From a virus (lineage: Duplodnaviria > Caudoviricetes), in IMG/VR virus record IMGVR_UViG_3300037424_001491, positions 1-50,313 of that record: DNA of 50,313 nucleotides; one strand, given 5' to 3'. The notes under the pieces were generated by a model, which was not told where the DNA came from, did no database searches, and saw nothing but the letters and a program-made list of their open reading frames with translations. Within the stretch, counting starts at the first letter, position 1, and each line of letters starts with the position of its first letter. The position numbers were made by a program, and so were the translations under genes. Shown here piece by piece: positions 635 to 27,404 of this stretch.

Positions 635-1576
635 ATGACAACTATAGAAGCCAAAAGAAATAGTCAAATAATCCACCCTATATTTGCCAGGCACGAAACC
701 TTTCATCCCCGATTTGGGTGGTTAAAGAAGGGGTTTGATAAAGCATCAGAGCAGCCTGATCTTTTTACGGATGATATGGCCCCATCTATTCTTGGCGTTG
801 GGAAAAATATGGTTAAAGCCATCAAGTACTGGTGCATTGCGTATAAAGTACTTGAAGAAGTCCAAGAAAGAGGCAAGGGGAGAATCCTTGTCCCTACCGC
901 TTTTGGCAATAGGTTATTGAATAACGACGGGTGGGATCCGTACCTTGAAGACCCTGCGTCACTTTGGCTTTTGCATTGGAGCCTACTCTCACTTCCAAAC
1001 TATGCTACAACATGGCACTACACTTTTAATGTTTTTAACCGCCCCAGCTTTATGGTGGAAGATATCCAACATGGGATATTTGAGTATGCAAAAAGAGAAT
1101 TTCCCAACAGCCGCATAACAGCTTCTTCTGTGGCTAGAGATGTGAGCTGTCTTCTGAGAATGTATGTCGAAGACTCATCTAGGCAGCTGACTGAGGACTC
1201 GATTGATAGCCCATTTACGGATCTTGGGCTTGTTAAGCAATATGGAGACAGGAGACATTTTGCCATGAGTATTGGGCCTAAGATTGGGCTAACTCATGAA
1301 ATCATTGCGGCCTCTTGCCTAGACTTTGCTGCCACAGCTGAAGAGGGGGCAAAAACAATATCAATAGCTCGCCTTACATATGAGCAGAATAGTCCAGGCC
1401 AGTGCTTTAAGCTTACAGAGGGCATAATTAGTGAAGCAATTGAGAGCGTTGCCATAGCCGTTGAGGATATTGAGATGTCCAAAACTGCTGGCCTTGTGCA
1501 GATGGCCTTCAGTCGAGACCCTTACTCCATCATCAATGATGTGCTAAACGGATATTACAAAAGGATCCATAACTAA
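635..1576 (+). CDS. sspB: DUF4007 family protein, SspB-like
   Basis: FARHETFHPRFGWLKKG, LGVGKNMVKAIKYW and WDPYLEDPASLWLLHW motifs; followed by ATPase and PAPS reductase genes. Confidence 0.85.
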   Translation: MTTIEAKRNSQIIHPIFARHETFHPRFGWLKKGFDKASEQPDLFTDDMAPSILGVGKNMVKAIKYWCIAYKVLEEVQERGKGRILVPTAFGNRLLNNDGWDPYLEDPASLWLLHWSLLSLPNYATTWHYTFNVFNRPSFMVEDIQHGIFEYAKREFPNSRITASSVARDVSCLLRMYVEDSSRQLTEDSIDSPFTDLGLVKQYGDRRHFAMSIGPKIGLTHEIIAASCLDFAATAEEGAKTISIARLTYEQNSPGQCFKLTEGIISEAIESVAIAVEDIEMSKTAGLVQMAFSRDPYSIINDVLNGYYKRIHN

Positions 1577-1577
1577 G

Positions 1578-4500
1578 ATGCCCATCTTCGATCAGATAAA
1601 AATCAAGAGAAGATATACAAGATCGGTAAATCTTGAAAGAGATCTTGAGGTAGCCGATAGTGTCAATGGTTACATTATCACGCCGAAGATTCAAAAAGTT
1701 ATTGACCGCTTTGTTGAAGCTCTTACTACACCCGATGCGACAAGAGCCTGGACTATAACTGGCGTCTACGGCACAGGGAAATCCGCATTCGCCCATTTCC
1801 TTTCGGCCCTGTGTTCTTCTAGGGACGATGAAATACGGAAAAATGCAGTCAAGATTTTTAATGCTTCCGGTGGCAGCAGTCGTAAGCTCTCATTGAACCT
1901 ACACGATAAGGGCCTAATAAAGGCAGTAATAACAGCACAAAGAGAGCCGATTGCACATTCGTTGATACGTGGACTTAAGTATGGCGCGGATAGGTACTGG
2001 GCTAGTGCCCCTGGCCCCAAAAGCGAAGTGCGTTCAAGATTGGATAAGCTCTATGTTGATCTATCTGCCGGAAGAGTTATCGAAAACGCCCAAGTATTAA
2101 GTCTGATAAAGGGCTTGGCGTCTAGCTCAAGGGCTGGGATGATCATTGTTATAGATGAACTCGGGAAGAACCTGGAGTATTCCGCACAACACCAATCTTC
2201 AAGCGATTTATACTTGCTTCAGCAGATCGCTGAACTGCCTGCCGGGGCGAAGAAGCCGAAAGTCTTTTTCCTTGGATTGCTCCACCAAGCTTTTTATGAA
2301 TACTCCCATGGGCTTGCTACAACTCAAAGAAATGAATGGATAAAGATTCAAGGCAGGTTTGAAGATATACCGCTTTCAGAATCCACGTCTAGACTTGTGC
2401 ATCTGATTGCAAATGCGATTGACTATGACGCAGCCACTCCAGAGGTAAAAAGGGATCTAGTGAAGTGGGGGGCTACATGGAGGAAGGAGTTAGAGAAGCT
2501 TGAACTTGCAAAGTCCTCTTTAGCCGAATTGCCAGAGCTTTATCCATGTCACCCAATCACAGCCTTAACTCTCCCTACACTTTGCAACAAGTTTTCACAG
2601 AACGATAGGACTCTTTTTACATTTCTTGCCAGCGATGAGCCACATTCATTTAAGAGCTTTTTAAAGTCCACTGAGCTTTCTCTTGAAATGCCCACCTTAA
2701 AGCCCCACCAACTTTACGACTACTTTATTGAGACCGCAGGGATTAATATGGCCTCGCGCTCCCATATGCAAAGGTGGTTAGAGGTGCAAGGGCGCATTGA
2801 CGAGGCAAGCGGCTTGGATGAAGATTCAATCGTTGCCCTTAAGACTATCGGAATACTGAATCTTGTTTCGGGGGCCGCGCCGATAAAAGCGTCATATAAG
2901 ATTCTTAATCTTGCGCTTGTTGATAGTCCATCATCCAAGGCTTATGGGCAATGGGATAACATCATAGAGGGTCTTATTAGTAAAGGGCTTGTCACCTATC
3001 GACGTTTTAATGACGAATATCGTCTTTGGGAAGGAAGCGATTTCGATATTGAAGATGCGGTTTCTGAAGAAAAACAGAAGATTCACGATACCCTCTCTGA
3101 AATTCTTTCTTCCGTGTCCCCGTTAAAGCCAGTCATTGCAAGGAGGCATAGTTATAAAACGGGTGGCATAAGATATTTTGAGAGAGCTTACTCGGAATCC
3201 ATTCCTAACCCCTTGCGATGCAAGTCACCCGATGCTGATGGGATTATTCTATACATCACAGGCGCATTACCAGAAAAGTCAGAAATCCAATCATATACTA
3301 CAGATGGGCGACCCGCTGTGATTATCTGTGCATCAGGGCTTGAATCTTTACGTGTTGCGAGCCGTGAGTATAAAGCCCTATTGAGCATTAGCGAGAATAG
3401 AAGCGAGCTGCAATCAGATGGGGTCGCACGTAAAGAGGTGCGGCAGCGCCTCTTTGTGGCAGAGAAGATTCTGAATGATACATTGAGTATAGCTTTTGAT
3501 TATTCCGGCGAGGCTAAGTGTTGGGTTCTTGGCAAGCAAATAAAGCTATCAGGGACACCTGATTTCAACTCCATGCTGTCTAATATTTGCGATCAGGTTT
3601 ATAGCAAGGGACTTGTCTTATGGAACGAACTAATCAATAGACGTGAATTATCCTCTCAAGGGGCAAAAGCAAGGCGAGAGCTTATTGAAGCCATGCTAAG
3701 CAATGATCACCTTGAGAGACTCGGTATAGTTGGCAATGGGCCTGAGTACAGCATGTATGAATCAGTTCTCAGAAGAACAGGTATACATGCCAAGAGAGAG
3801 ACGGCCTGGTGCATCGACAAGCCCGATAGTGCCTCTGGCATCATGGATGTATGGTCAACAATTGAGGACTTCTGCGTAAACTCTACCGAAACTGCGAGAA
3901 GCTTAGATGGGCTATACGAATTACTTAAATGCCCCCCTTATGGCGTAAAGCCGGGCATTATCCCTGTCCTGCTGCTTGCTGTTATTCAATATCATTCCGA
4001 TTACTTAAGTGTTTACATCGAGGGCTCTTATATCCCAGTTCTCGGGCCAGAGCATTTCGAGCTCCTCGTGAAGAAGCCTGAACTATTCGCAGTGAAATAC
4101 TTCCAGATATCTGGCCTTAAAAGGCAATTGTTCGAGGAGCTGACGGAAATTTTCTCTGCTACGAAGATATCTCCAAAGGGTTTAAGAAACGCTACCCTCT
4201 TAGGGATAGTTAACCCTCTTGTTAAGTTCGTTCAAAAACTTTCAAAGTATAGCCTTCAGGCTGATACTGTCAGCGATGAGGCCAAAGCCGTCAGGAAGGC
4301 ATTGATCGAAGCAAAGGATCCCGATGACCTTCTATTCCGAGCGCTGCCCCAAGCTTGTGGATTTCCTTTTATTGATGCTCATGCCTCTTCAGACAGCAAG
4401 CTAATCGTTTCCTTCAAGAAGAGTCTTATCCAAACCTTGCAGGAGCTTCAGCTCTCATATGATCGTGTTCTTTCATACGGGCAGGTGCTTTTGTCTAATG

Positions 4501-5039
4501 CTTTTTCAGCCCAGCGTGACTTGCAAGGGGTCAGAGAGTACATGAGAGCGATTGCCGGGCGCGTCAACGCAAATACACAGGTTGTCGAACTGAACCTGAA
4601 GCGATTTATCCAGGCGATTATTGAAACAAATTCAAGTGATAAAGCTTGGCTTGAGTCTGTGCTAATGGTAATTGCCGACAAACCAGTTGAGTCATGGACG
4701 GATACGGACAAATTAACCTTTGAAGTAAAGCTGGGAGACCTTATTAAGCGCTTTAAAAACGTAGAGGCGATCATTGATCTCTCTCCTGTGGACAAGAAGG
4801 GCATTGACGCTCAGAAACTCACCATCACTCATCAGGATGGAAGAGAGTTTAGTGAAGTGCTCTGGCTTGAGGAAAAAGAAAAAGCAGAGGTCGCCTCCAT
4901 CATATCAAAGATAAAGCCATATCTCACGGGGAATGATAAGATCAATAAAGCAATCCTGAGTGCCATTATTGAGGAGATCATTCCTAAAGATATATCAGAG
5001 CAGTCCGAATCTAAGAACAAGAAGAAGCATCATGGCTAA
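1578..5039 (+). CDS. sspC: Large P-loop ATPase, SspC-like (BrxC-related)
   Basis: RSVNLERD, Walker A GVYGTGKS, Walker B IVIDELGK, EWIKIQGRF, YPCHP, QNDRTLFTFL, PPYGVK. Confidence 0.85.
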   Translation: MPIFDQIKIKRRYTRSVNLERDLEVADSVNGYIITPKIQKVIDRFVEALTTPDATRAWTITGVYGTGKSAFAHFLSALCSSRDDEIRKNAVKIFNASGGSSRKLSLNLHDKGLIKAVITAQREPIAHSLIRGLKYGADRYWASAPGPKSEVRSRLDKLYVDLSAGRVIENAQVLSLIKGLASSSRAGMIIVIDELGKNLEYSAQHQSSSDLYLLQQIAELPAGAKKPKVFFLGLLHQAFYEYSHGLATTQRNEWIKIQGRFEDIPLSESTSRLVHLIANAIDYDAATPEVKRDLVKWGATWRKELEKLELAKSSLAELPELYPCHPITALTLPTLCNKFSQNDRTLFTFLASDEPHSFKSFLKSTELSLEMPTLKPHQLYDYFIETAGINMASRSHMQRWLEVQGRIDEASGLDEDSIVALKTIGILNLVSGAAPIKASYKILNLALVDSPSSKAYGQWDNIIEGLISKGLVTYRRFNDEYRLWEGSDFDIEDAVSEEKQKIHDTLSEILSSVSPLKPVIARRHSYKTGGIRYFERAYSESIPNPLRCKSPDADGIILYITGALPEKSEIQSYTTDGRPAVIICASGLESLRVASREYKALLSISENRSELQSDGVARKEVRQRLFVAEKILNDTLSIAFDYSGEAKCWVLGKQIKLSGTPDFNSMLSNICDQVYSKGLVLWNELINRRELSSQGAKARRELIEAMLSNDHLERLGIVGNGPEYSMYESVLRRTGIHAKRETAWCIDKPDSASGIMDVWSTIEDFCVNSTETARSLDGLYELLKCPPYGVKPGIIPVLLLAVIQYHSDYLSVYIEGSYIPVLGPEHFELLVKKPELFAVKYFQISGLKRQLFEELTEIFSATKISPKGLRNATLLGIVNPLVKFVQKLSKYSLQADTVSDEAKAVRKALIEAKDPDDLLFRALPQACGFPFIDAHASSDSKLIVSFKKSLIQTLQELQLSYDRVLSYGQVLLSNAFSAQRDLQGVREYMRAIAGRVNANTQVVELNLKRFIQAIIETNSSDKAWLESVLMVIADKPVESWTDTDKLTFEVKLGDLIKRFKNVEAIIDLSPVDKKGIDAQKLTITHQDGREFSEVLWLEEKEKAEVASIISKIKPYLTGNDKINKAILSAIIEEIIPKDISEQSESKNKKKHHG

Positions 5040-5841
5040 GAAGGTAAGGCATATTTTAGGGCTTTCGGGTGGCAAGGATAGTGCGGCCCTTGCGGTCTAC
5101 CTTCACAATAGAGTCCCTGACATTGAGTATTTCTTCTGTGATACGGGCAAAAACTGCGAGCTACCAGAGACCTATGAGTTTCTAGATAGGCTGAAAGCTC
5201 GCCTTGGCATAAAGATTACTTACCTGAGTGCAGAAAGAGGTTTTGATCATTGGCTGAAAGTCTACAATGGCTTCTTGCCCTCTGCCGTGGCTCGATGGTG
5301 CACAAAACAGCTCAAGATCATCCCACTTGAGAAATTCGTTGGCGATGATGAGGCCATAAGCTACATCGCCATTAGAGCCGATGAGGACAGGGATGGCTAT
5401 GTTTCTTCTAAAGAAAACATAAACCCCGTTTTCCCATTCAAAGATGATGGGCTCGTTAAGGATGATGTGTATCGCCTCCTGGAAGAGAGCGGGATCGGCA
5501 TGCCGAAGTATTATGAATGGCGGTCACGCTCTGGATGTTACTTCTGCTTCTTCCAGAGGAAAATTGAATGGATCGGACTACATGACCACCACCCAGATCT
5601 ATTCAAAAAGGCTCAAGCATATGAGACTGAACATTCCGATGGCCGCAAATTCACGTGGAACGATAATGAGACACTGCAAGAGCTTATTGGAAGAAGAGAT
5701 TCAATAGAAGCTGAACACCATGCGGCTGTAGACAGACTAAAGAGTAAGAATCTGATCAAAGCAAACTCTCCCCTTGTGCGGACTCTAGGTGCCCTGGATG
5801 ATGAAGAAGACTTTAACCCGTGCGCTGTCTGCCACTTATAG
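5032..5841 (+). CDS. sspD: PAPS-reductase family protein, SspD-like
   Basis: PP-loop SGGKDS, RWCT, RSGCYFCFFQR, C-terminal CAVC; ATG 5032 overlaps the sspC end. Confidence 0.85.
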   Translation: MAKKVRHILGLSGGKDSAALAVYLHNRVPDIEYFFCDTGKNCELPETYEFLDRLKARLGIKITYLSAERGFDHWLKVYNGFLPSAVARWCTKQLKIIPLEKFVGDDEAISYIAIRADEDRDGYVSSKENINPVFPFKDDGLVKDDVYRLLEESGIGMPKYYEWRSRSGCYFCFFQRKIEWIGLHDHHPDLFKKAQAYETEHSDGRKFTWNDNETLQELIGRRDSIEAEHHAAVDRLKSKNLIKANSPLVRTLGALDDEEDFNPCAVCHL

Positions 5842-20376: not shown

Positions 20377-20858
20377 GCGCGATCAAATCCATTGTGCTCC
20401 ATTGCTCGGACTCCACACACGGCTGCGCGCGGGAGATCCGCCGCTGGCATAGGGAGCGCGGGTGGAGCGATATCGGCTACCACTTCGTGATCGAGAACGG
20501 CACGCCCGTGCAAGGGCTCACCATCGAGGCGCTTGACGGCTCCATCGAGTGCGGGCGCACTTTGGACGGCTCCCCGGATCTTACCGGCGACGAGATCGGC
20601 GCGCACGCCCTCGGGCACAATGCGGACTCAATCGGCGTCTGCCTGATAGGCCGGGACGCATTCACCGACGCCCAGCGGCGCGCGCTCCTCGGGTTGCTTA
20701 TGGATCTCTGCACGCTCTACAAGATCGACCCGGACAGCGTGATCGGCCACTACGAGACAGAGAGCGGGCGGGCGCAGGGCAAGACATGCCCGAACTTCGA
20801 CGTGCCCGCGTTCCGCGAGGTCTTGAAGCACGAGATGTTCACGGAGGGCAAAGGATGA
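20373..20858 (+). CDS. Endolysin, N-acetylmuramoyl-L-alanine amidase (T7 lysozyme-like)
   Basis: IVLHCS, GWSDIGYHFVI, GAHALGHN, SIGVCLIG, GH...KTCPNFDV. Confidence 0.92.
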   Translation: MSAIKSIVLHCSDSTHGCAREIRRWHRERGWSDIGYHFVIENGTPVQGLTIEALDGSIECGRTLDGSPDLTGDEIGAHALGHNADSIGVCLIGRDAFTDAQRRALLGLLMDLCTLYKIDPDSVIGHYETESGRAQGKTCPNFDVPAFREVLKHEMFTEGKG

Positions 20859-21337
20859 GCTTCATGACAGACATCTTCGCGGGCTCGCTCGGCTCCACGG
20901 TGGAGGCCATAGGCTCCACGGTCAAGAAGTTCGTGACCACGGACAACGACCGCATGGCCATGCAAACAGAGCTGGAGGAGATCCTCCAGCGCCGCGACTC
21001 GGAGGTGGAGCAGACCATACGCACGGAGCTTGCGGCCAAGGAGCGCGTGCTCGTGGCCGAGCTACAGCAGGGCGACACATACACCAAGCGCGCCCGGCCC
21101 TCGGTGGTCTACTATGGGCTCGCGGCCATTACCGTGGATCTGGTCTTCCGCATCGGGATGGTCTTACGAGGCACCCCAATCTCCGAGGTACCGTCCACTT
21201 TTATCCCCACGGAGTTCTGGTACGCATGGGGCGGCATCGCCTCCACCTGGGTGATCGGGCGCTCGGCGGAGAAGCGCGGGGCGCGTAACAAGGTGACGGA
21301 CTTCATCACGGGCGCTGGTTCGAGGCTGATCGATTGA
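20855..21337 (+). CDS. Holin (3TM/GTA-like)
   Basis: KRARP motif, hydrophobic helices, GRSAEK; follows the endolysin. Confidence 0.8.
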   Translation: MSFMTDIFAGSLGSTVEAIGSTVKKFVTTDNDRMAMQTELEEILQRRDSEVEQTIRTELAAKERVLVAELQQGDTYTKRARPSVVYYGLAAITVDLVFRIGMVLRGTPISEVPSTFIPTEFWYAWGGIASTWVIGRSAEKRGARNKVTDFITGAGSRLID

Positions 21338-21937: not shown

Positions 21938-22396
21938 ATGCCCAAGGGCAAGGGCATACGCCGGAACGTGGATCTGGCCTTCGACGTCTACTGCGAGACG
22001 GGCGGGGACGTGGCTGCCACGATCCGCGAGCTTGCGTCGCGCCACGGCCTGACCGTCTCGCGCCCCACGTTCTACGACTGGGCGAAGGCCCACAGCTTCG
22101 ACGCCCGCCGCGTGGGGGTGGACGCCAGGAGGCAGGCTGACCGCGAGGCCCTCCTGACCGCGCGTGCGCGCATGGTGCGGGGGCTCCTCGACCGCATGGA
22201 GCAGTACGAGGCGTACATGGCCTCTCAGGGCGGCAAGCCCGACCACATGGCCCAGTTCGCCTACAACGGGATCGTCGGGCAGCTCCGCCTCCTCGTGCGC
22301 AAGTTCGAGTACGAGGACGTGGAGGAGACCGCCCCGGCCGAGGATGTGAAGGTGAAGGCACGGGACATATTGAAGGAGATCTATGGAATCGAGTAG
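21938..22396 (+). CDS. Putative terminase small subunit
   Basis: HTH (VSRPTFYDWAK); directly upstream of TerL. Confidence 0.65.
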   Translation: MPKGKGIRRNVDLAFDVYCETGGDVAATIRELASRHGLTVSRPTFYDWAKAHSFDARRVGVDARRQADREALLTARARMVRGLLDRMEQYEAYMASQGGKPDHMAQFAYNGIVGQLRLLVRKFEYEDVEETAPAEDVKVKARDILKEIYGIE

Positions 22397-23672
22397 GCCG
22401 GTGCTCATGCCGTATCAGCGCCGCTGGATCGCGGACCGCTCAACGCGCAAGGTCTGGGTCGCGTCGCGCCAGATCGGCAAGTCCTTCGCCCTCTCCCTCG
22501 ATGCGGTCTCCGAGGCCCTCGCCAGCAGGTGCGACAACCTCGTACTCTCGCGCTCGCAGCGGCAGAGCCGGGAGATGATGCGCAAGGTCAAGGATCACCT
22601 CCGCGTCTTCGGCGCGCTCAGCGCGGGCGCTCTGGACGCACTCGACGACCGCGCGGAGGACGTCACGCTCCCCGGCGGCTCGCGGATCATCAGCCTCCCG
22701 GCGAGCCCGGACACGGTGCGCGGGTTCTCGGGCAACGTGTTTCTCGACGAGTTCGCGTTCCACTCGGACGACCGCGAGATATACAAAGCCGTCTATCCGT
22801 ACACTACGCGCGGCTACAAGATACGCATATGCTCCACGCCCAACGGCCTCGGCAATATGTTCGCCGATATCGTGACGCGGCCCGATACCCCGTTCTCCGT
22901 GCACTCCACCACCATCCACGAAGCCAGGGCCGAGGGCTTTGAGGTGGACATCGATGATCTGAGGCGCGGCATCCCGCACCCGGACGACTGGGCGCAGGAG
23001 TACGAGTGCCGGTTCGTGGACGAGGCCACGGCGCTGCTCACGTATGACCTGATCCAGTCGGCAGAGGACGCGCTTGCGACAGAGGACGTGGCCGCATGGA
23101 CGGGGAGCGCGGATCGCGGCGACCTGTACCTCGGGGTGGATATCGGCCGCCACCGCGACCTGACCGCGTTCTGGCTGCTGGAGCTGGTCGGCGACGTGAT
23201 GTGGACGCGCGCTGCCATGGTTATGCACCGCGCCCCCTTCGCGCTCCAGCGCGAACGCCTGTACGGCCTGATGGACGTGTACGGTATCCGGCGCGCGTGC
23301 ATTGACGCCACGGGCCTCGGGATGCAGCTCGCGGAGGAGGCGCGCGTGCGCTACGGCTCGCGCGTGGAGCAGGTGACGTTCACCGGAGCGGTAAAGGAAG
23401 ACCTCGCGATCACGATGATGCGCCGCTTTCAGGACAGGCTCGTCCGCGTGCCCGCGTCCACGGCAGTGCGCGAAGACCTGCACTCGGTACAGAAGGTGAC
23501 CACGGCGGCGGGCAACGTGCGGTATGACGCCCAGCGATCGGACGCCGGTCACGCCGACCGGTTCTGGGCTCTGGCCCTCGCGGTGCAGGCCGCTGGCACG
23601 ATGCGTGGCCCGATCGAATACGAGCAGGTGGCGGCCCGCACGGGGTTTAACCGCGCGAAGGGGTGCTGGTAA
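22383..23672 (+). CDS. Terminase large subunit (Mu gp28-like)
   Basis: SRQIGKS, VFLDEFAF, STPNG, GVDIG, IDATGLG, HADRFWALALA. Confidence 0.93.
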   Translation: MESSRPVLMPYQRRWIADRSTRKVWVASRQIGKSFALSLDAVSEALASRCDNLVLSRSQRQSREMMRKVKDHLRVFGALSAGALDALDDRAEDVTLPGGSRIISLPASPDTVRGFSGNVFLDEFAFHSDDREIYKAVYPYTTRGYKIRICSTPNGLGNMFADIVTRPDTPFSVHSTTIHEARAEGFEVDIDDLRRGIPHPDDWAQEYECRFVDEATALLTYDLIQSAEDALATEDVAAWTGSADRGDLYLGVDIGRHRDLTAFWLLELVGDVMWTRAAMVMHRAPFALQRERLYGLMDVYGIRRACIDATGLGMQLAEEARVRYGSRVEQVTFTGAVKEDLAITMMRRFQDRLVRVPASTAVREDLHSVQKVTTAAGNVRYDAQRSDAGHADRFWALALAVQAAGTMRGPIEYEQVAARTGFNRAKGCW

Positions 23673-23883: not shown

Positions 23884-25554
23884 ATGAGGCTTCTGGATCA
23901 ATACGGCAGGGAAATCGGCAAGAACCGCCCGATCCTCGACGAGGTGGGGGGCGTCGCGGGCATCCGGGACAGGTACTCCACCTACCCGAGCCAGGGGCTC
24001 ACGCCCGAGCGGCTCACCCGGATATTCAAACAGGCCGATATGGGCGACGTGTTGAGCCAGGCGGACCTGTACGAAGAGATGGAAGAGAAGGACGCCCAGC
24101 TCGGCGCGGTGCTCCAGACCCGGAAGCTCGCGGTGGCCGGGCTCTCCCGCGAGGTGGTGGCCGCGAGCGACTCGGCCGAGGACCGGGAGATCGCGGACTT
24201 CGTGCGCGAGGCCCTCGACTGGATCCGGAACCTCGACGACGCGCTCGTGGCCATGCTCGACGCGACCGGTAAGGGGTACTCCGTGTCCGAGATCATATGG
24301 GAGGTGGACGAAGGCAGGGTCTGGTGCTCGGACATCCGCTGGCTCCACCCGAGGCGATTCACGTTTAACTCGCCCCACGGCGTGACCGGCGCCCCGAAGT
24401 TCCTGACCGAAGCGGAACCCGCATACGGCGAAGACCTCCTGCCGAACAAGTTCATCTACCACCGCGCTGGCGGTCGTGCGGGCTCGGCCGTGCGTGCGGG
24501 CGTGCTCAGGCCGTGTGCGTGGATGTACCTCTTCAAGAACTACACGCTCAAGGACTGGATCATATTCAACGAGCGGTTCGCGATGCCCATGCGGATCGGG
24601 AAGTACACGCCCGGCGCGGGCGAGCAGGAGCGTAAGGTTCTGCGCGAGGCGGTATTCAACCTCGGCTCGGACGCGGCGGCCGTGATCTCCGAGTCCACGA
24701 TGATCGAGCTGCTTGAGGGCCAGAAGTCCGGCAGTTTTGCTGCATACGAGAAGCTCGTGGCCTACTGCAACGCGGCCATGAGCAAGGCGGTGCTCGGCCA
24801 TAGCGCGAGCGCGGACTCCACGGCAGGCCGCCTCGGCTCGGAGAACGACGCGCGCGACATCCGCCGCGACATCCTCGAGGCCGACGCCCTCGGGCTCTCT
24901 ACCACGGTCCGGCTCCAGCTGATCCGGCCGCTCGTCGCGTTCAACTTCGGCCCGGACAAGGCCCTGCCCATGCTCCGCTTCGCGCTCGACGAGAGCGAGG
25001 ATCTCGAGAAGGCCGCGGTCGCCATAGGCGCGCTCGCCGGGGCGGGCCTCAGGATCCCGGCTTCGCACGTCTATCAGCGCTTCGGCATCCCCGCGCCCGC
25101 CGAGGGCGAGGAGGTGCTCGAGCGCCTGAGCGCGCCCATGCCCTTCAAGCGCGGAGACCTCCCCCCCGTACTACGAGCCGGGCACGATATCGCCGCGCAC
25201 CGCGCCACGCTCGAAGCGCTCCAGCGCGGCGGCCACGTCCCCGACGAGTTACGTGCAGCCCTGCTCACCCCGCCGGGCTGTACCTGCGGGTGCGGTGGCA
25301 CGAGCCTTGCCGCCATGAAGGGCGGACAAAAGGACGGCGTGGACGAGCTCACCGGGCGGCTCCTGGCCGAAGCCCCCGACCCGGCCATGGCGCGGGTCGA
25401 GAAGCTGCTCGCAGAGTCGCCCACGCTCGAGGCGTTCCGCGACGGGCTGCTGGATGCCTTTAAGGATATGGACGTCACGGAGCTGGCAAACGTGATGCAG
25501 CGGGCCTTTGTGGCGGCCGAATTGGCGGGGAGGTACCGTGGCACCCACGGCTAG
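23884..25554 (+). CDS. Portal protein (Mu gp29/DUF935)
   Basis: YEEMEEKDAQL, GKGYSVSEIIW, ERFAMPMRIGKY, MSKAVLG. Confidence 0.92.
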   Translation: MRLLDQYGREIGKNRPILDEVGGVAGIRDRYSTYPSQGLTPERLTRIFKQADMGDVLSQADLYEEMEEKDAQLGAVLQTRKLAVAGLSREVVAASDSAEDREIADFVREALDWIRNLDDALVAMLDATGKGYSVSEIIWEVDEGRVWCSDIRWLHPRRFTFNSPHGVTGAPKFLTEAEPAYGEDLLPNKFIYHRAGGRAGSAVRAGVLRPCAWMYLFKNYTLKDWIIFNERFAMPMRIGKYTPGAGEQERKVLREAVFNLGSDAAAVISESTMIELLEGQKSGSFAAYEKLVAYCNAAMSKAVLGHSASADSTAGRLGSENDARDIRRDILEADALGLSTTVRLQLIRPLVAFNFGPDKALPMLRFALDESEDLEKAAVAIGALAGAGLRIPASHVYQRFGIPAPAEGEEVLERLSAPMPFKRGDLPPVLRAGHDIAAHRATLEALQRGGHVPDELRAALLTPPGCTCGCGGTSLAAMKGGQKDGVDELTGRLLAEAPDPAMARVEKLLAESPTLEAFRDGLLDAFKDMDVTELANVMQRAFVAAELAGRYRGTHG

Positions 25555-26773
25555 CCCGGAAAGCCTGCCCTTCGACGAGGCGATCGCGTACTTCCGCGAC
25601 AAGGTGAACCTGCCCACGGAGGGGTGGACGGATCTCATGGGCGGGATGCACTCGCGCGCCTTCGTCGTGGCCGGGGCACAGAAGTCCGAGCTGCTGGCCG
25701 ATCTGCGCGGGGCCGTGGATCAGGCGCTGGCCGAGGGCACGACCCTCGCGGACTTCCGGCGGGAGTTCAAACAGATCGTGGCGCGCCACGGGTGGAGCCA
25801 CAAGGGTGAGCCCGGCTGGCGCACGGCCACGATCTTCGAGACGAACCTCCGCACGGCCCACGCGGCAGGGCGCTACAAGGAGATGACGGATCCGGCCGTG
25901 CTCGCGGCCCGACCGTACTGGCGGTATATCGGCGGGCTCTCGGTGAACCCACGGCAGGAGCACATGGAGTGGTCCGGGACGATCCTTCCGGCGGACGACC
26001 CGTGGTGGAGCAAGCACTATCCACCGAACGGATGGGGATGCAAGTGTATGGTGACGAGCGTATCGGAGGGGGAGATGGAGCGCGACGGCCTGCGCCTGAG
26101 CCCGGCCCCCGGGAACGGGACGGTGGAGTGGACGGATCCGCAGACCGGCGAGGTCAGGGACGTGCCGAAGGGCGTGGATCCCGGCTGGGACTATAACCCC
26201 GGCGAGGCCGCCTGGGGACGGCGGCTCTCGGATGACGCCATGGCCGCGTGGCGGAAGCAGGGGGCTGCGGCGTTCGAGAGCCTCACGCCCGAGACCTGGG
26301 AGAATTACGGGCTGGAGCCCCGCCTCGAGCCTCTGGCCTCGGGTGCGCGGCCTGACCATTCCATACCGCAGACGCGCGAGGGGGTGCGGACGTACATGCG
26401 GCGGCTCATAGGCGGGGACGAGAAGGTCTACACCTTCGCCGACCGCGACCACCCCGGGTTCCGCCACGACGTGCTCGTGAACGCCGACTCGGTGGCCGGG
26501 CATGTGGATCCGGATCGTGCCGCGTTTCTGCCTGTCCTCGGGGAGACCATCGAGAGCCCGCAGGAGGTCTGGGCCGCGTTCGAGCGCCACAGGGGCACGG
26601 GCCGGGTGATCCTCCGCCAGCGGTTCATCCGTGCGGCTGGCAGCGGCGAGACGGGGATGCTCGCGGTGGCGCAGGCACGGGGCGGCGTGATGGAGGCTTG
26701 GACGGTCATCCCGACGGGTGACTGGAGTTATCTCAACAAGCAGCGATCCGGGAGGCTCGTATGGAAGCGGTAG
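25538..26773 (+). CDS. MuF (gp30) minor head protein with a C-terminal PBECR2-like nuclease domain
   Basis: AFVVAGA, IFETNLRTAHAAGR, PPNGWGCKC, DPGWDYNPG; C-terminal extension ...TIESPQEVW...YLNKQRSGRLVWKR. Confidence 0.8.
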   Translation: MAPTASPESLPFDEAIAYFRDKVNLPTEGWTDLMGGMHSRAFVVAGAQKSELLADLRGAVDQALAEGTTLADFRREFKQIVARHGWSHKGEPGWRTATIFETNLRTAHAAGRYKEMTDPAVLAARPYWRYIGGLSVNPRQEHMEWSGTILPADDPWWSKHYPPNGWGCKCMVTSVSEGEMERDGLRLSPAPGNGTVEWTDPQTGEVRDVPKGVDPGWDYNPGEAAWGRRLSDDAMAAWRKQGAAAFESLTPETWENYGLEPRLEPLASGARPDHSIPQTREGVRTYMRRLIGGDEKVYTFADRDHPGFRHDVLVNADSVAGHVDPDRAAFLPVLGETIESPQEVWAAFERHRGTGRVILRQRFIRAAGSGETGMLAVAQARGGVMEAWTVIPTGDWSYLNKQRSGRLVWKR

Positions 26774-26775
26774 TA

Positions 26776-26856
26776 GGAATGGGGCCCTCACTCCCCCCAC
26801 AGCGGGGCGGGCGGATGGTGGCGTCTATCGGGGCTGCGGCCCAGGCGGCACCTTCC
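26776..26856 (-). ncRNA. Candidate cloverleaf small RNA, antisense, directly behind the MuF-PBECR gene
   Basis: Minus-strand promoter TTGACG-17 bp-CATAAT (26891-26863); GGAAGGUGCC...GGCCCCAUUCC closing stem with three internal hairpins. Confidence 0.5.
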
Positions 26857-26891
26857 AATCACATTATGCCACGCCCGGGGGGAGGCGTCAA

Positions 26892-27404
26892 GTGAGCGGC
26901 GCGGCACTGGTATATCGCATCGAGGCCGGTTCGGCCCATGAGTTCTTCGCATGGGTCAAGGGGCGGCTCACGGACATGACCCCGGTCATGCGGGTCGCGG
27001 GCGAGATCCTCCGCACGAGCGCGGTGCGGAACTTCGAGGAAGGCGGGCGGCCCGATAAATGGGAGCCCCACGCCATGGCCACGGTGCTCGGCGGTATCAG
27101 GAAGAAGGACTTCACGAAGCGCGGGAAGCTTCGCGGCGGGGCCGGGCGGCGCTTGCGGCGGGGCAGGGTGCTCGTGCGCTCGGGCAGGCTCATGGGCTCG
27201 ATCAGCTGGCAGGCCACGCGCGAGAGCGCCACGGTCGGCACGAACGTGGTCTACGCCGCGATCCACCAGTTCGGCGGAGAGGCCGGGCGCAAGGGCCACC
27301 GGGTGACTATCCCCGCCCGCCCGTTTCTGCTCGTGCAGGACGAGGATCACGCCGAGATCAGGCGCTCGGCCATAGAACATATCCTTCATGGAGGCAAGGC
27401 ATGA
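26892..27404 (+). CDS. Virion morphogenesis protein (Mu gpG-like)
   Basis: LVRSGRLMGSI, VGTNVVYAAIHQFGG, IPARPFL. Confidence 0.88.
   Translation: MSGAALVYRIEAGSAHEFFAWVKGRLTDMTPVMRVAGEILRTSAVRNFEEGGRPDKWEPHAMATVLGGIRKKDFTKRGKLRGGAGRRLRRGRVLVRSGRLMGSISWQATRESATVGTNVVYAAIHQFGGEAGRKGHRVTIPARPFLLVQDEDHAEIRRSAIEHILHGGKA

Follow-up and report, generated by a model that had tools for sequence, protein, structure and literature searches.

MuF polymorphic toxins of temperate phages join a MuF N-terminal module to a variable C-terminal effector, and in the survey of Jamet et al. 2017 (PMC5576092) a short open reading frame (ORF) lies downstream in 89.4% of 191 cases. MuF-PBECR proteins have been treated as injected effectors, predicted to be packaged in the virion, with an active site formed by a His plus a Thr or Ser (Iyer et al. 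2017, PMC5512222). In the same source the C-terminal domain of the MuF proteins of Mu and D108 is called inactive. The locus described here lies in a 50,313-base IMG/VR virus record, IMGVR_UViG_3300037424_001491, which was analysed over its whole length and is called the window. It encodes a MuF protein with a C-terminal PBECR2 domain, a predicted ribonuclease (RNase), followed by a gap and then by a gene resembling G of Mu. An earlier note on this DNA had stated that MuF toxins are usually followed by protein immunity genes. That stands for the polymorphic MuF toxins with which Jamet et al. 2017 (PMC5576092) deal; for MuF-PBECR, the relevant passages of Iyer et al. 2017 (PMC5512222) name neither an immunity gene nor a partner RNA. 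The gap very probably holds a genuine small RNA (sRNA) gene, read from the minus strand.

Structured RNAs with related features are known from several systems. In type I toxin-antitoxin pairs such as bsrG/SR4 and txpA/RatA of Bacillus subtilis and par RNA I/RNA II of Enterococcus faecalis, convergent antisense RNAs overlap at their 3' ends. These pairs are often prophage-borne, loop-loop contacts start the pairing with the toxin message, whose expression is thereby blocked, and the toxin is a small membrane peptide. In the phage-linked type III system ToxIN, ToxI is a tandem repeat that lies upstream on the same strand and is processed by the toxin. The pRNA of phi29, a phage without a TerL-type motor, has two covarying complementary loops that pair between molecules to form a ring on the portal. 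ColE1 RNA I/RNA II and R1 CopA/CopT are kissing-loop copy-control RNAs, in which the complementary loop is on the target RNA.

The MuF gene of the window (25538-26773, plus strand, GTG start) encodes a minor head / DNA pilot protein of 411 amino acids. A Phage_Mu_F match (PF04233) covers amino acids 56-172 with 52.5 bits against a Pfam cutoff of 29.6, and the protein belongs to PHROG 220, 'minor head protein and DNA pilot'. The nuclease-like C-terminal extension described in the earlier note is the PBECR2 domain (PF18810), matched in Pfam at amino acids 311-410 (26468-26770, plus strand) with 70.2 bits against a cutoff of 27.1. The stop codon TAG is read at 26771-26773, and the spacer from there to the GTG of G at 26892 is the 118-bp gap (26774-26891) that the note had reported. 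Covariance models built from relatives, R1 and R2, place the sRNA gene at 26778-26860 on the minus strand with 95.9 and 86.5 bits, respectively, and this is the sole match in the 50-kb window. The minus-strand promoter TTGACG-17 bp-CATAAT claimed in the note was found at 26891-26863, with 10 of 12 matches to sigma-70-type hexamers. Its -35 hexamer TTGACG (26886-26891) abuts the GTG start of G; its -10 hexamer CATAAT (26863-26868) has a TG upstream and is separated from the -35 by a 17-nucleotide (nt) spacer. Promoter-like sites in 5 kb numbered one against 0.5 expected, which on its own is not above chance; the promoter is, in addition, conserved in relatives, as described below. From the position of the -10, transcription would probably start near 26856.

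Contigs from genomes, viruses and metagenomes were scanned for relatives, the queries being the protein and a six-sequence MuF-PBECR2 alignment; this gave 184 loci. The closest MuF relative is 58% identical, and no close relative was among the loci found. Loci whose MuF is 36-58% identical share an element after the MuF stop. In minus-strand alignment its length is constant at 79-84 nt, which upholds, at about 80 nt, the ~81 nt of the earlier note. RNAalifold, unaided, chose a long-range helix between the apical loop of one hairpin, B, and the loop of a second hairpin, A'. The R1 model was made from 5 sequences and is narrow (21 matches; one further R1 search added none), and R2 was made from 19 of the R1 matches. 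In the window, the lower stem of hairpin B (26813-26856, minus strand) is paired at 11 of its 14 positions; a GAU bulge on the 3' side, a GGG/CCC stem at the apex and the loop CCGCAGC (26839-26833) complete the hairpin. One linker base separates it from hairpin A' (26784-26812, minus strand), which consists of GCCC-G-CCCC, the loop GCUGUGG (26803-26797) and GGGG-AGUGA-GGGC. The B and A' loops of the window are complementary over 7 pairs, one of them G-U.

The structure was assessed by pair counts in two alignments, one of 35 sequences from the first set and one of 50 matches, 44 of them distinct, from a sample for which the PBECR2 domain alone was the query. The loop-loop helix, which is absent from R1 and R2, was entered as a pseudoknot. 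Of the alignment cells, 91.7% (35 sequences) and 92.3% (50 matches) were paired. Shuffled controls gave 65.3% and 67.0%, with 0 of 500 reaching the observed value in either set, and slid controls gave 38-49% and 34-48%. Changes on both sides were found in 27 of 28 pairs in each alignment; in hairpin B they include all 10 lower-stem pairs and 3/3 or 2/3 of the apical pairs, depending on the alignment. The loop-loop helix was paired in 92.4% of cells in the 35 sequences and in 95.5% in the 50 matches, and 6 of 7 and 7 of 7 of its pairs, respectively, had changed on both sides. Since the alignments were fitted to the nested helices they favour those, a bias from which the loop-loop helix is free. 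Its loop sequences vary widely among loci and the complementarity is kept. The covariation downstream of PBECR2 homologues that the note had named as a check is present. At least 68 distinct element sequences were found.

By comparative analysis the element is two hairpins with complementary 6-7-nt loops, and not a cloverleaf. The four-way junction proposed in the earlier note, and with it the tRNA-like character (tRNA, transfer RNA), is not supported: ARAGORN and the tRNA-type Rfam families gave no match, and single-sequence folds are ordinary (the minus strand of the 118-nt gap folds at z -0.35 against shuffles). The loops may pair either within one molecule, as kissing loops, or between molecules, two arrangements that leave the same trace in sequence. 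The most strongly conserved block of primary sequence, GGGAG(U/C)GAGGGCCC, is on the 3' side (26784-26796, minus strand). It contains GGAG and GAGG, which resemble a Shine-Dalgarno (SD) sequence, and lies partly in the internal loop of A'.

The position and strand of the element are constant. R2 run on the window and the 184 loci (E up to 5) gave 41 matches, 41/41 on the minus strand. All except one are in PBECR2-positive loci (40/41); the exception, L045, is weak at 21 bits. Most of these first-set matches end within ~6 nt of the MuF stop. In the second sample, 80 loci fetched by the PBECR2 domain alone, 50 matches were found in 48 loci, every one of them minus-strand and immediately past the domain. 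R2 missed variants that were seen by eye or by a fold detector, namely the Shewanella type (L001, L013, L014), L002, L044, L110, L015 and RR1-B, and the match rates are therefore lower bounds. R2 found none in G001, G002, the phage record W01 or 151 genomes of G002's class, where emptiness is uninformative. A few elements are displaced: at +93 in L036, 483 nt past the MuF stop in L109/L215 and ~180 nt past the PBECR2 match in L202. In L109/L215 and L202 other sequence appears to have been inserted between MuF and the RNA gene. Second copies on the same strand with different loops occur, in tandem or up to ~1 kb off (L036 2739-2816; L193 and L194 2409-2486; L078 1783-1862). In L015 (2504-3730) the MuF-PBECR2 frame is broken into ORFs of 165 and 239 amino acids, and a promoter-like site and two hairpins are kept.

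The strand is also indicated by the promoter. Among 37 unique first-set matches, 25, 17 and 9 have promoter-like sites with at least 8, 9 and 10 of 12 matches, respectively. The corresponding rates in 3000 random 60-nt windows were 5.1%, 1.0% and 0.1%, and windows of the same size on the other side of the element (37) gave 3, 0 and 0. In 33 further unique matches the numbers were 30, 24 and 11. Of 54 promoter-like sites, 51 have a -10 that ends 0-5 nt ahead of where the model begins. The -35 consensus of the relatives is TTGAC(T/A) (T 52, T 50, G 51, A 42, C 39 in the 54 sites scoring at least 8/12). Both hexamers are conserved, 16-18 nt apart, and the -35 as a rule lies right against the G start codon. 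G starts in PBECR2-negative loci that lack the element were promoter-like in 0 of 11 cases. G-U pairs outnumber A-C pairs by 48 to 28 (p 0.03), a modest excess that was counted on an alignment fitted to the minus strand and so argues less strongly for it. Runs of U on the minus strand follow A' in several relatives, with at least 5 U in 8 nt in 23 of 68. A cultured example is the Rhizobium phage RR1-B (NC_021557), which has a 103-bp unannotated gap between MuF and G. The minus strand of this gap carries TGGACT-17 nt-TATATT, a first hairpin, and a GC-rich terminator hairpin followed by UUUUACUUUUU; the loops of both hairpins are complementary.

The element co-occurs with PBECR2. By the domain hidden Markov model, 97 of 178 MuF proteins are PBECR2-positive, and removal of near-duplicates left 86 positive and 68 negative loci. 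At a score of at least 19 the fold detector picked out 43 of 77 true windows; among the controls it responded to 4.8% of 231 shuffles and to 5.1% of 612 coding sequences. At this threshold it was positive in 46 of the 86 unique PBECR2-positive and 10 of the 68 negative loci (Fisher p 6e-7), and the four PBECR2-negative matches that were inspected sit within the G coding sequence. A second, looser fold detector showed no discrimination and was dropped. In short MuFs (~260 amino acids) G starts within 1-17 nt. The spacer is 77-162 bp in 43 of 81 PBECR2-positive loci and under 70 bp in 30 of 42 short MuFs, spacer length being a noisy proxy as GC-rich ORFs over-extend. On a FastTree tree of the MuF N-terminal part (147 rows) there are 10 independent pairs that differ in PBECR2. 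With the RNA called by a model match or a detector score of at least 19, 8.2 pairs changed the same way and 0.0 the other (median sign-test p 0.008). Twenty-four long MuFs (~390-490 amino acids; among them L003, L005, L018 and L019) lack PBECR2 and have other, Pfam-less C-terminal domains. The spacers after them are 100-400 bp with no R2 match and may hold other cargo or immunity genes.

The active site of the domain was examined for the same link. The predicted catalytic residues are His322 (26501-26503, plus strand; recorded as just ahead of the start of the Pfam match) and Thr389 (26702-26704, plus strand), within the PBECR2 domain. Both are invariant across 10 aligned PBECR2 domains and agree with the active-site pattern given in Iyer et al. 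2017 (PMC5512222). An AlphaFold2 model of MuF amino acids 282-411 has a pLDDT (predicted local distance difference test) of 85.6. Foldseek found no match to this model in the PDB at E 0.001 or better. An exhaustive structural scan (VIA-align) gave weak matches, the best at Z 5.0, to a contact-dependent inhibition (CDI) toxin, and all below Z 6. The top 20 neighbours are rich in BECR RNase toxins: CDI toxins/CdiA-CT, colicin D (Z 4.2), BrnT, RelE and colicin E5. Such weak neighbours of a predicted structure are consistent with the Pfam name PBECR2, short of proof.

The catalytic His is kept in 62 of the 86 PBECR2-positive loci. All 34 unique first-set loci with a model match keep it and none of the 24 His-less loci has a match, a comparison weakened by the bias of the models towards the clade of the window. 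A spacer or match was present in 55 and absent in 2 of the loci with the His, against 13 and 10 of those without. In Mu and D108, F and G overlap and there is no gap. A link of the RNA to PBECR2 catalysis is at this level suggestive only.

The locus shares with the MuF toxins of Jamet et al. 2017 (PMC5576092), as described there, the MuF N-terminal module with a variable C-terminal effector in temperate phages, and an extra element that is downstream only when the effector domain is present. It differs in that this element is an opposite-strand RNA gene with no conserved ORF. The domain family and architecture are those of the MuF-PBECR effectors of Iyer et al. 2017 (PMC5512222), and the RNA gene is an addition to what is set out there. 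As in type I pairs, the candidate toxin gene faces, at its 3' end, a convergent gene for a small antisense RNA that has a promoter of the constitutive type. Unlike them, the candidate toxin is a domain of a 411-amino-acid virion protein instead of a small peptide, the overlap as far as traced covers the intercistronic region and not the coding part, and the loops of the RNA are complementary to each other. By analogy with type III systems, an endoribonuclease would be neutralised by a structured, protein-binding RNA. Here, however, one RNA unit (rarely two) lies downstream of the nuclease gene, on the other strand and with its own promoter, and the nuclease is BECR-type and not ToxN. Like the pRNA of phi29 it has covarying complementary loops and is encoded beside head and portal genes; unlike it, it occurs with a large terminase, has no Rfam pRNA match and gives no sign of multimers. 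The 6-7-nt loops, the GC-rich closing stems and the fast divergence of loops with kept complementarity recall the ColE1 and R1 copy-control RNAs, except that both loops are on one RNA.

Taken together, the favoured account, held at somewhat short of even confidence, is a promoter-driven structured RNA that partners or neutralises the PBECR2 RNase. Host sigma-70 RNA polymerase would read the ~80-nt RNA from the minus strand, starting from the promoter whose -35 abuts the G start codon. The RNA would be antisense to the stretch between MuF and G as far as the MuF stop, folding into the long 5' hairpin B and then the 3' hairpin A', which in many relatives would double as a terminator. The promoter faces the late operon and late transcription should override it, so synthesis of the RNA probably falls in phases without late-gene expression: lysogeny or early infection. 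The gene would have been gained and lost together with the PBECR2 domain of MuF, and a functional tie between the two is probable. That the dedicated partner restrains the RNase, as an RNA antitoxin or immunity factor, is put forward more tentatively. Neutralisation is favoured because the gene tracks the domain and because other MuF effectors are trailed by small immunity ORFs. The folded RNA might bind the domain, as in type III systems, or pair with the 3' end of the MuF message, as in type I; the compact conserved fold suits protein binding better than plain antisense. A further version, quite unlikely, makes the RNA an immunity factor against an RNase injected from the virion: the loops of the RNA would pair between molecules as in phi29 pRNA, and the resulting multimer would bind and cage the cognate PBECR2 domain.

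Several observations weigh against a neutralising partner of PBECR2. The toxicity of PBECR2 is an assumption, and Iyer et al. 2017 (PMC5512222), in the part that bears on this, favours messenger RNA (mRNA) or CRISPR RNA (crRNA) targets over lethal ones. All 80 loci fetched by PBECR2 alone are MuF fusions, and the link to PBECR2 is therefore inseparable from a link to this MuF subtype. In about 12 of the 86 PBECR2-positive loci the RNA would not fit. On the tree, calling the RNA by a model match or a detector score of at least 21 left 5.1 pairs the same way and 0.1 the other (p 0.06), model matches only gave 3.6 and 0 (p 0.125), and the spacer proxy, with 6 independent pairs, gave 2.9 and 0 (p 0.25). 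The direction is consistent and the strength hinges on how the RNA is called, which weakens the case. The tree test of His against RNA rests on 3 independent pairs, and the His-less loci L170, L175 and L081 keep, as judged by eye, the promoter, hairpins with complementary loops and a terminator. The mutually paired loops are poorly placed either to be read by a protein or to initiate antisense pairing. In the window copy the lower stem has 3 mismatches, and since no U-tract follows A' the 3' end is undefined. The 83-nt element alone folds at z +0.67, a value equalled by 153 of 200 shuffles. It is the plus strand of the whole gap that folds better, at z -2.43, which only 2 of 200 shuffles match. 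A search for sequencing runs returned two DNA-type sediment metagenomes and no RNA run listed with the sequence.

The main rival, in itself unlikely, casts the RNA as a late-operon regulator that works antisense in cis and is unconnected with RNase toxicity. Pairing with the MuF-G junction of the late message would lead to RNase III processing or to altered stability or translation of F or G; alternatively, the convergent promoter would act by transcriptional interference. In favour of such a role, the RNA is by construction fully complementary to the intercistronic region, its promoter faces the late operon from the edge of G, and the element ends at the MuF stop. It leaves unexplained, however, the near-exclusive presence with PBECR2-bearing MuFs, the weak L045 aside, where domain-less MuFs join G directly. 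The conserved self-complementarity of the two loops, with its many compensatory changes, is likewise not accounted for. A trans-acting prophage RNA, directed at host messages or superinfecting phages in lysogenic conversion or exclusion, would fit the compact, stable look of the RNA and the presence of a sigma-70 promoter of its own within an operon that is otherwise late. We consider it improbable: the loops vary greatly among phages and match each other instead of a conserved target, and the PBECR2 link is again unexplained. A second loop target was sought in the loci, and the 115 extra complementary sites hold no consistent position. A bump of such sites 100-200 nt upstream was traced to Leu-Arg codons and GC-rich repeats and was rejected.

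The remaining alternatives concern the other strand, a protein and a tRNA mimic. The functional molecule could be the plus strand, as a structure of the late message that masks an SD or serves as a processing site, with the minus-strand promoter an AT-rich by-product. The start of the gap (26774-26891) carries, on the plus strand, CUCCCCCC, which can pair with the strong SD of G, GGGGGGAGG; by sequence, this pairing could mask that SD in the late message. The low z of the plus-strand fold, which includes this pairing, and the presence of hairpins on both strands speak for such a role. Both hexamers are nevertheless conserved at 16-18-nt spacing and at a fixed distance from the structure, none of the 11 element-less G starts is promoter-like, G-U pairs exceed A-C pairs and the U-runs after A' in relatives are on the minus strand, all of which makes it very unlikely. 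The earlier note had seen no ORF in the gap. Two frames do cross it. One is a 44-amino-acid plus-strand ORF (26761-26895), judged non-coding, with a TGA that overlaps the G start codon GTG; the other is the frame of G itself, open from 26718. Neither is conserved in relatives, and to that extent the statement holds. Small ORFs often trail MuF toxins, and the 44-amino-acid ORF, with its stop on the G start, could encode a small immunity protein. It has no PHROG match, and gaps of the Shewanella type have stops in all three plus frames. Among the 68 distinct elements each plus frame is open in 36-39 and each minus frame in 36-44, so no frame is consistently open, and the substitutions in the stems are compensatory. 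By these comparisons the element is not protein-coding, the gap has no conserved ORF, and an immunity protein there is hardly credible. A tRNA-like cloverleaf that acts as a decoy for a tRNase could be argued from the tRNases among BECR RNases, from colicin D and CdiA-CT among the weak structural neighbours, and from hairpins with 7-nt loops. ARAGORN, however, found no tRNA gene in the window or in 9 related loci, and Rfam 15 gave no match in the window at the gathering score and none in the 9 loci at E up to 1, the rows around the gap being at chance level. With two hairpins instead of four arms as well, a decoy of this kind is a remote prospect. An Rfam row for RT-15 RNA inside G (27237-27399, minus strand) scores 21.9 bits where the gathering score is 82 (E 0.012) and is most likely chance.

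The genome around the locus is that of a Mu-like phage. The record was graded complete by CheckV and encodes a Mu-type transposase and a transposition ATPase. A Pfam profile search identified a Mu-like late operon on the plus strand, with the large terminase at 22383-23672 and the Portal_Mu gene at 23884-25554, after which MuF follows. G (26892-27404, plus strand, GTG start) is a Mu G-like virion morphogenesis / tail completion gene (Phage_tail_S 89.3 bits; PHROG 26), and beyond it Pfam finds the Mu I protease and the major head protein gpT. Upstream of the terminase is a holin of the gene-transfer-agent type (GTA_holin_3TM, 56.5 bits; 20549-21337, plus strand). The left end of the window (635-5841, plus strand) encodes a DUF4007 protein (310.8 bits), a protein of 1153 amino acids with a faint EcoEI_R_C match and a PAPS_reduct protein. 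This three-gene module resembles a DNA modification/defence system of the phosphorothioate type, borne by the phage or its flank.

In full-text literature, supplementary files aside, no RNA gene was found described beside MuF-PBECR. We would class the element as a new phage antisense sRNA family, absent from Rfam 15, and possibly as a new RNA-antitoxin layout. Head proteins of the MuF-PBECR type are widespread among Mu-like phages and are predicted to be injected along with the DNA; we know of no account of the way in which a producing cell or a lysogen withstands the RNase that they carry. A conserved, promoter-equipped RNA gene that tracks PBECR2 gives a handle on the control of this RNase that can be tested at the bench, and the element is a ready marker for this MuF subtype in metagenomes. 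Were the RNA merely a regulator of the late operon, it would still be a new phage sRNA family with unusually clear covariation, including that of the loop-loop helix. If it neutralises the RNase, it would be the RNA counterpart of the immunity proteins of polymorphic toxins, and its layout, a single unit with kissing loops, downstream and on the opposite strand, would be new among RNA antitoxins. Should it act as a caging multimer, lysogens would be protected from the RNase of their own and of kin phages, and tandem second copies with different loops would widen that protection.

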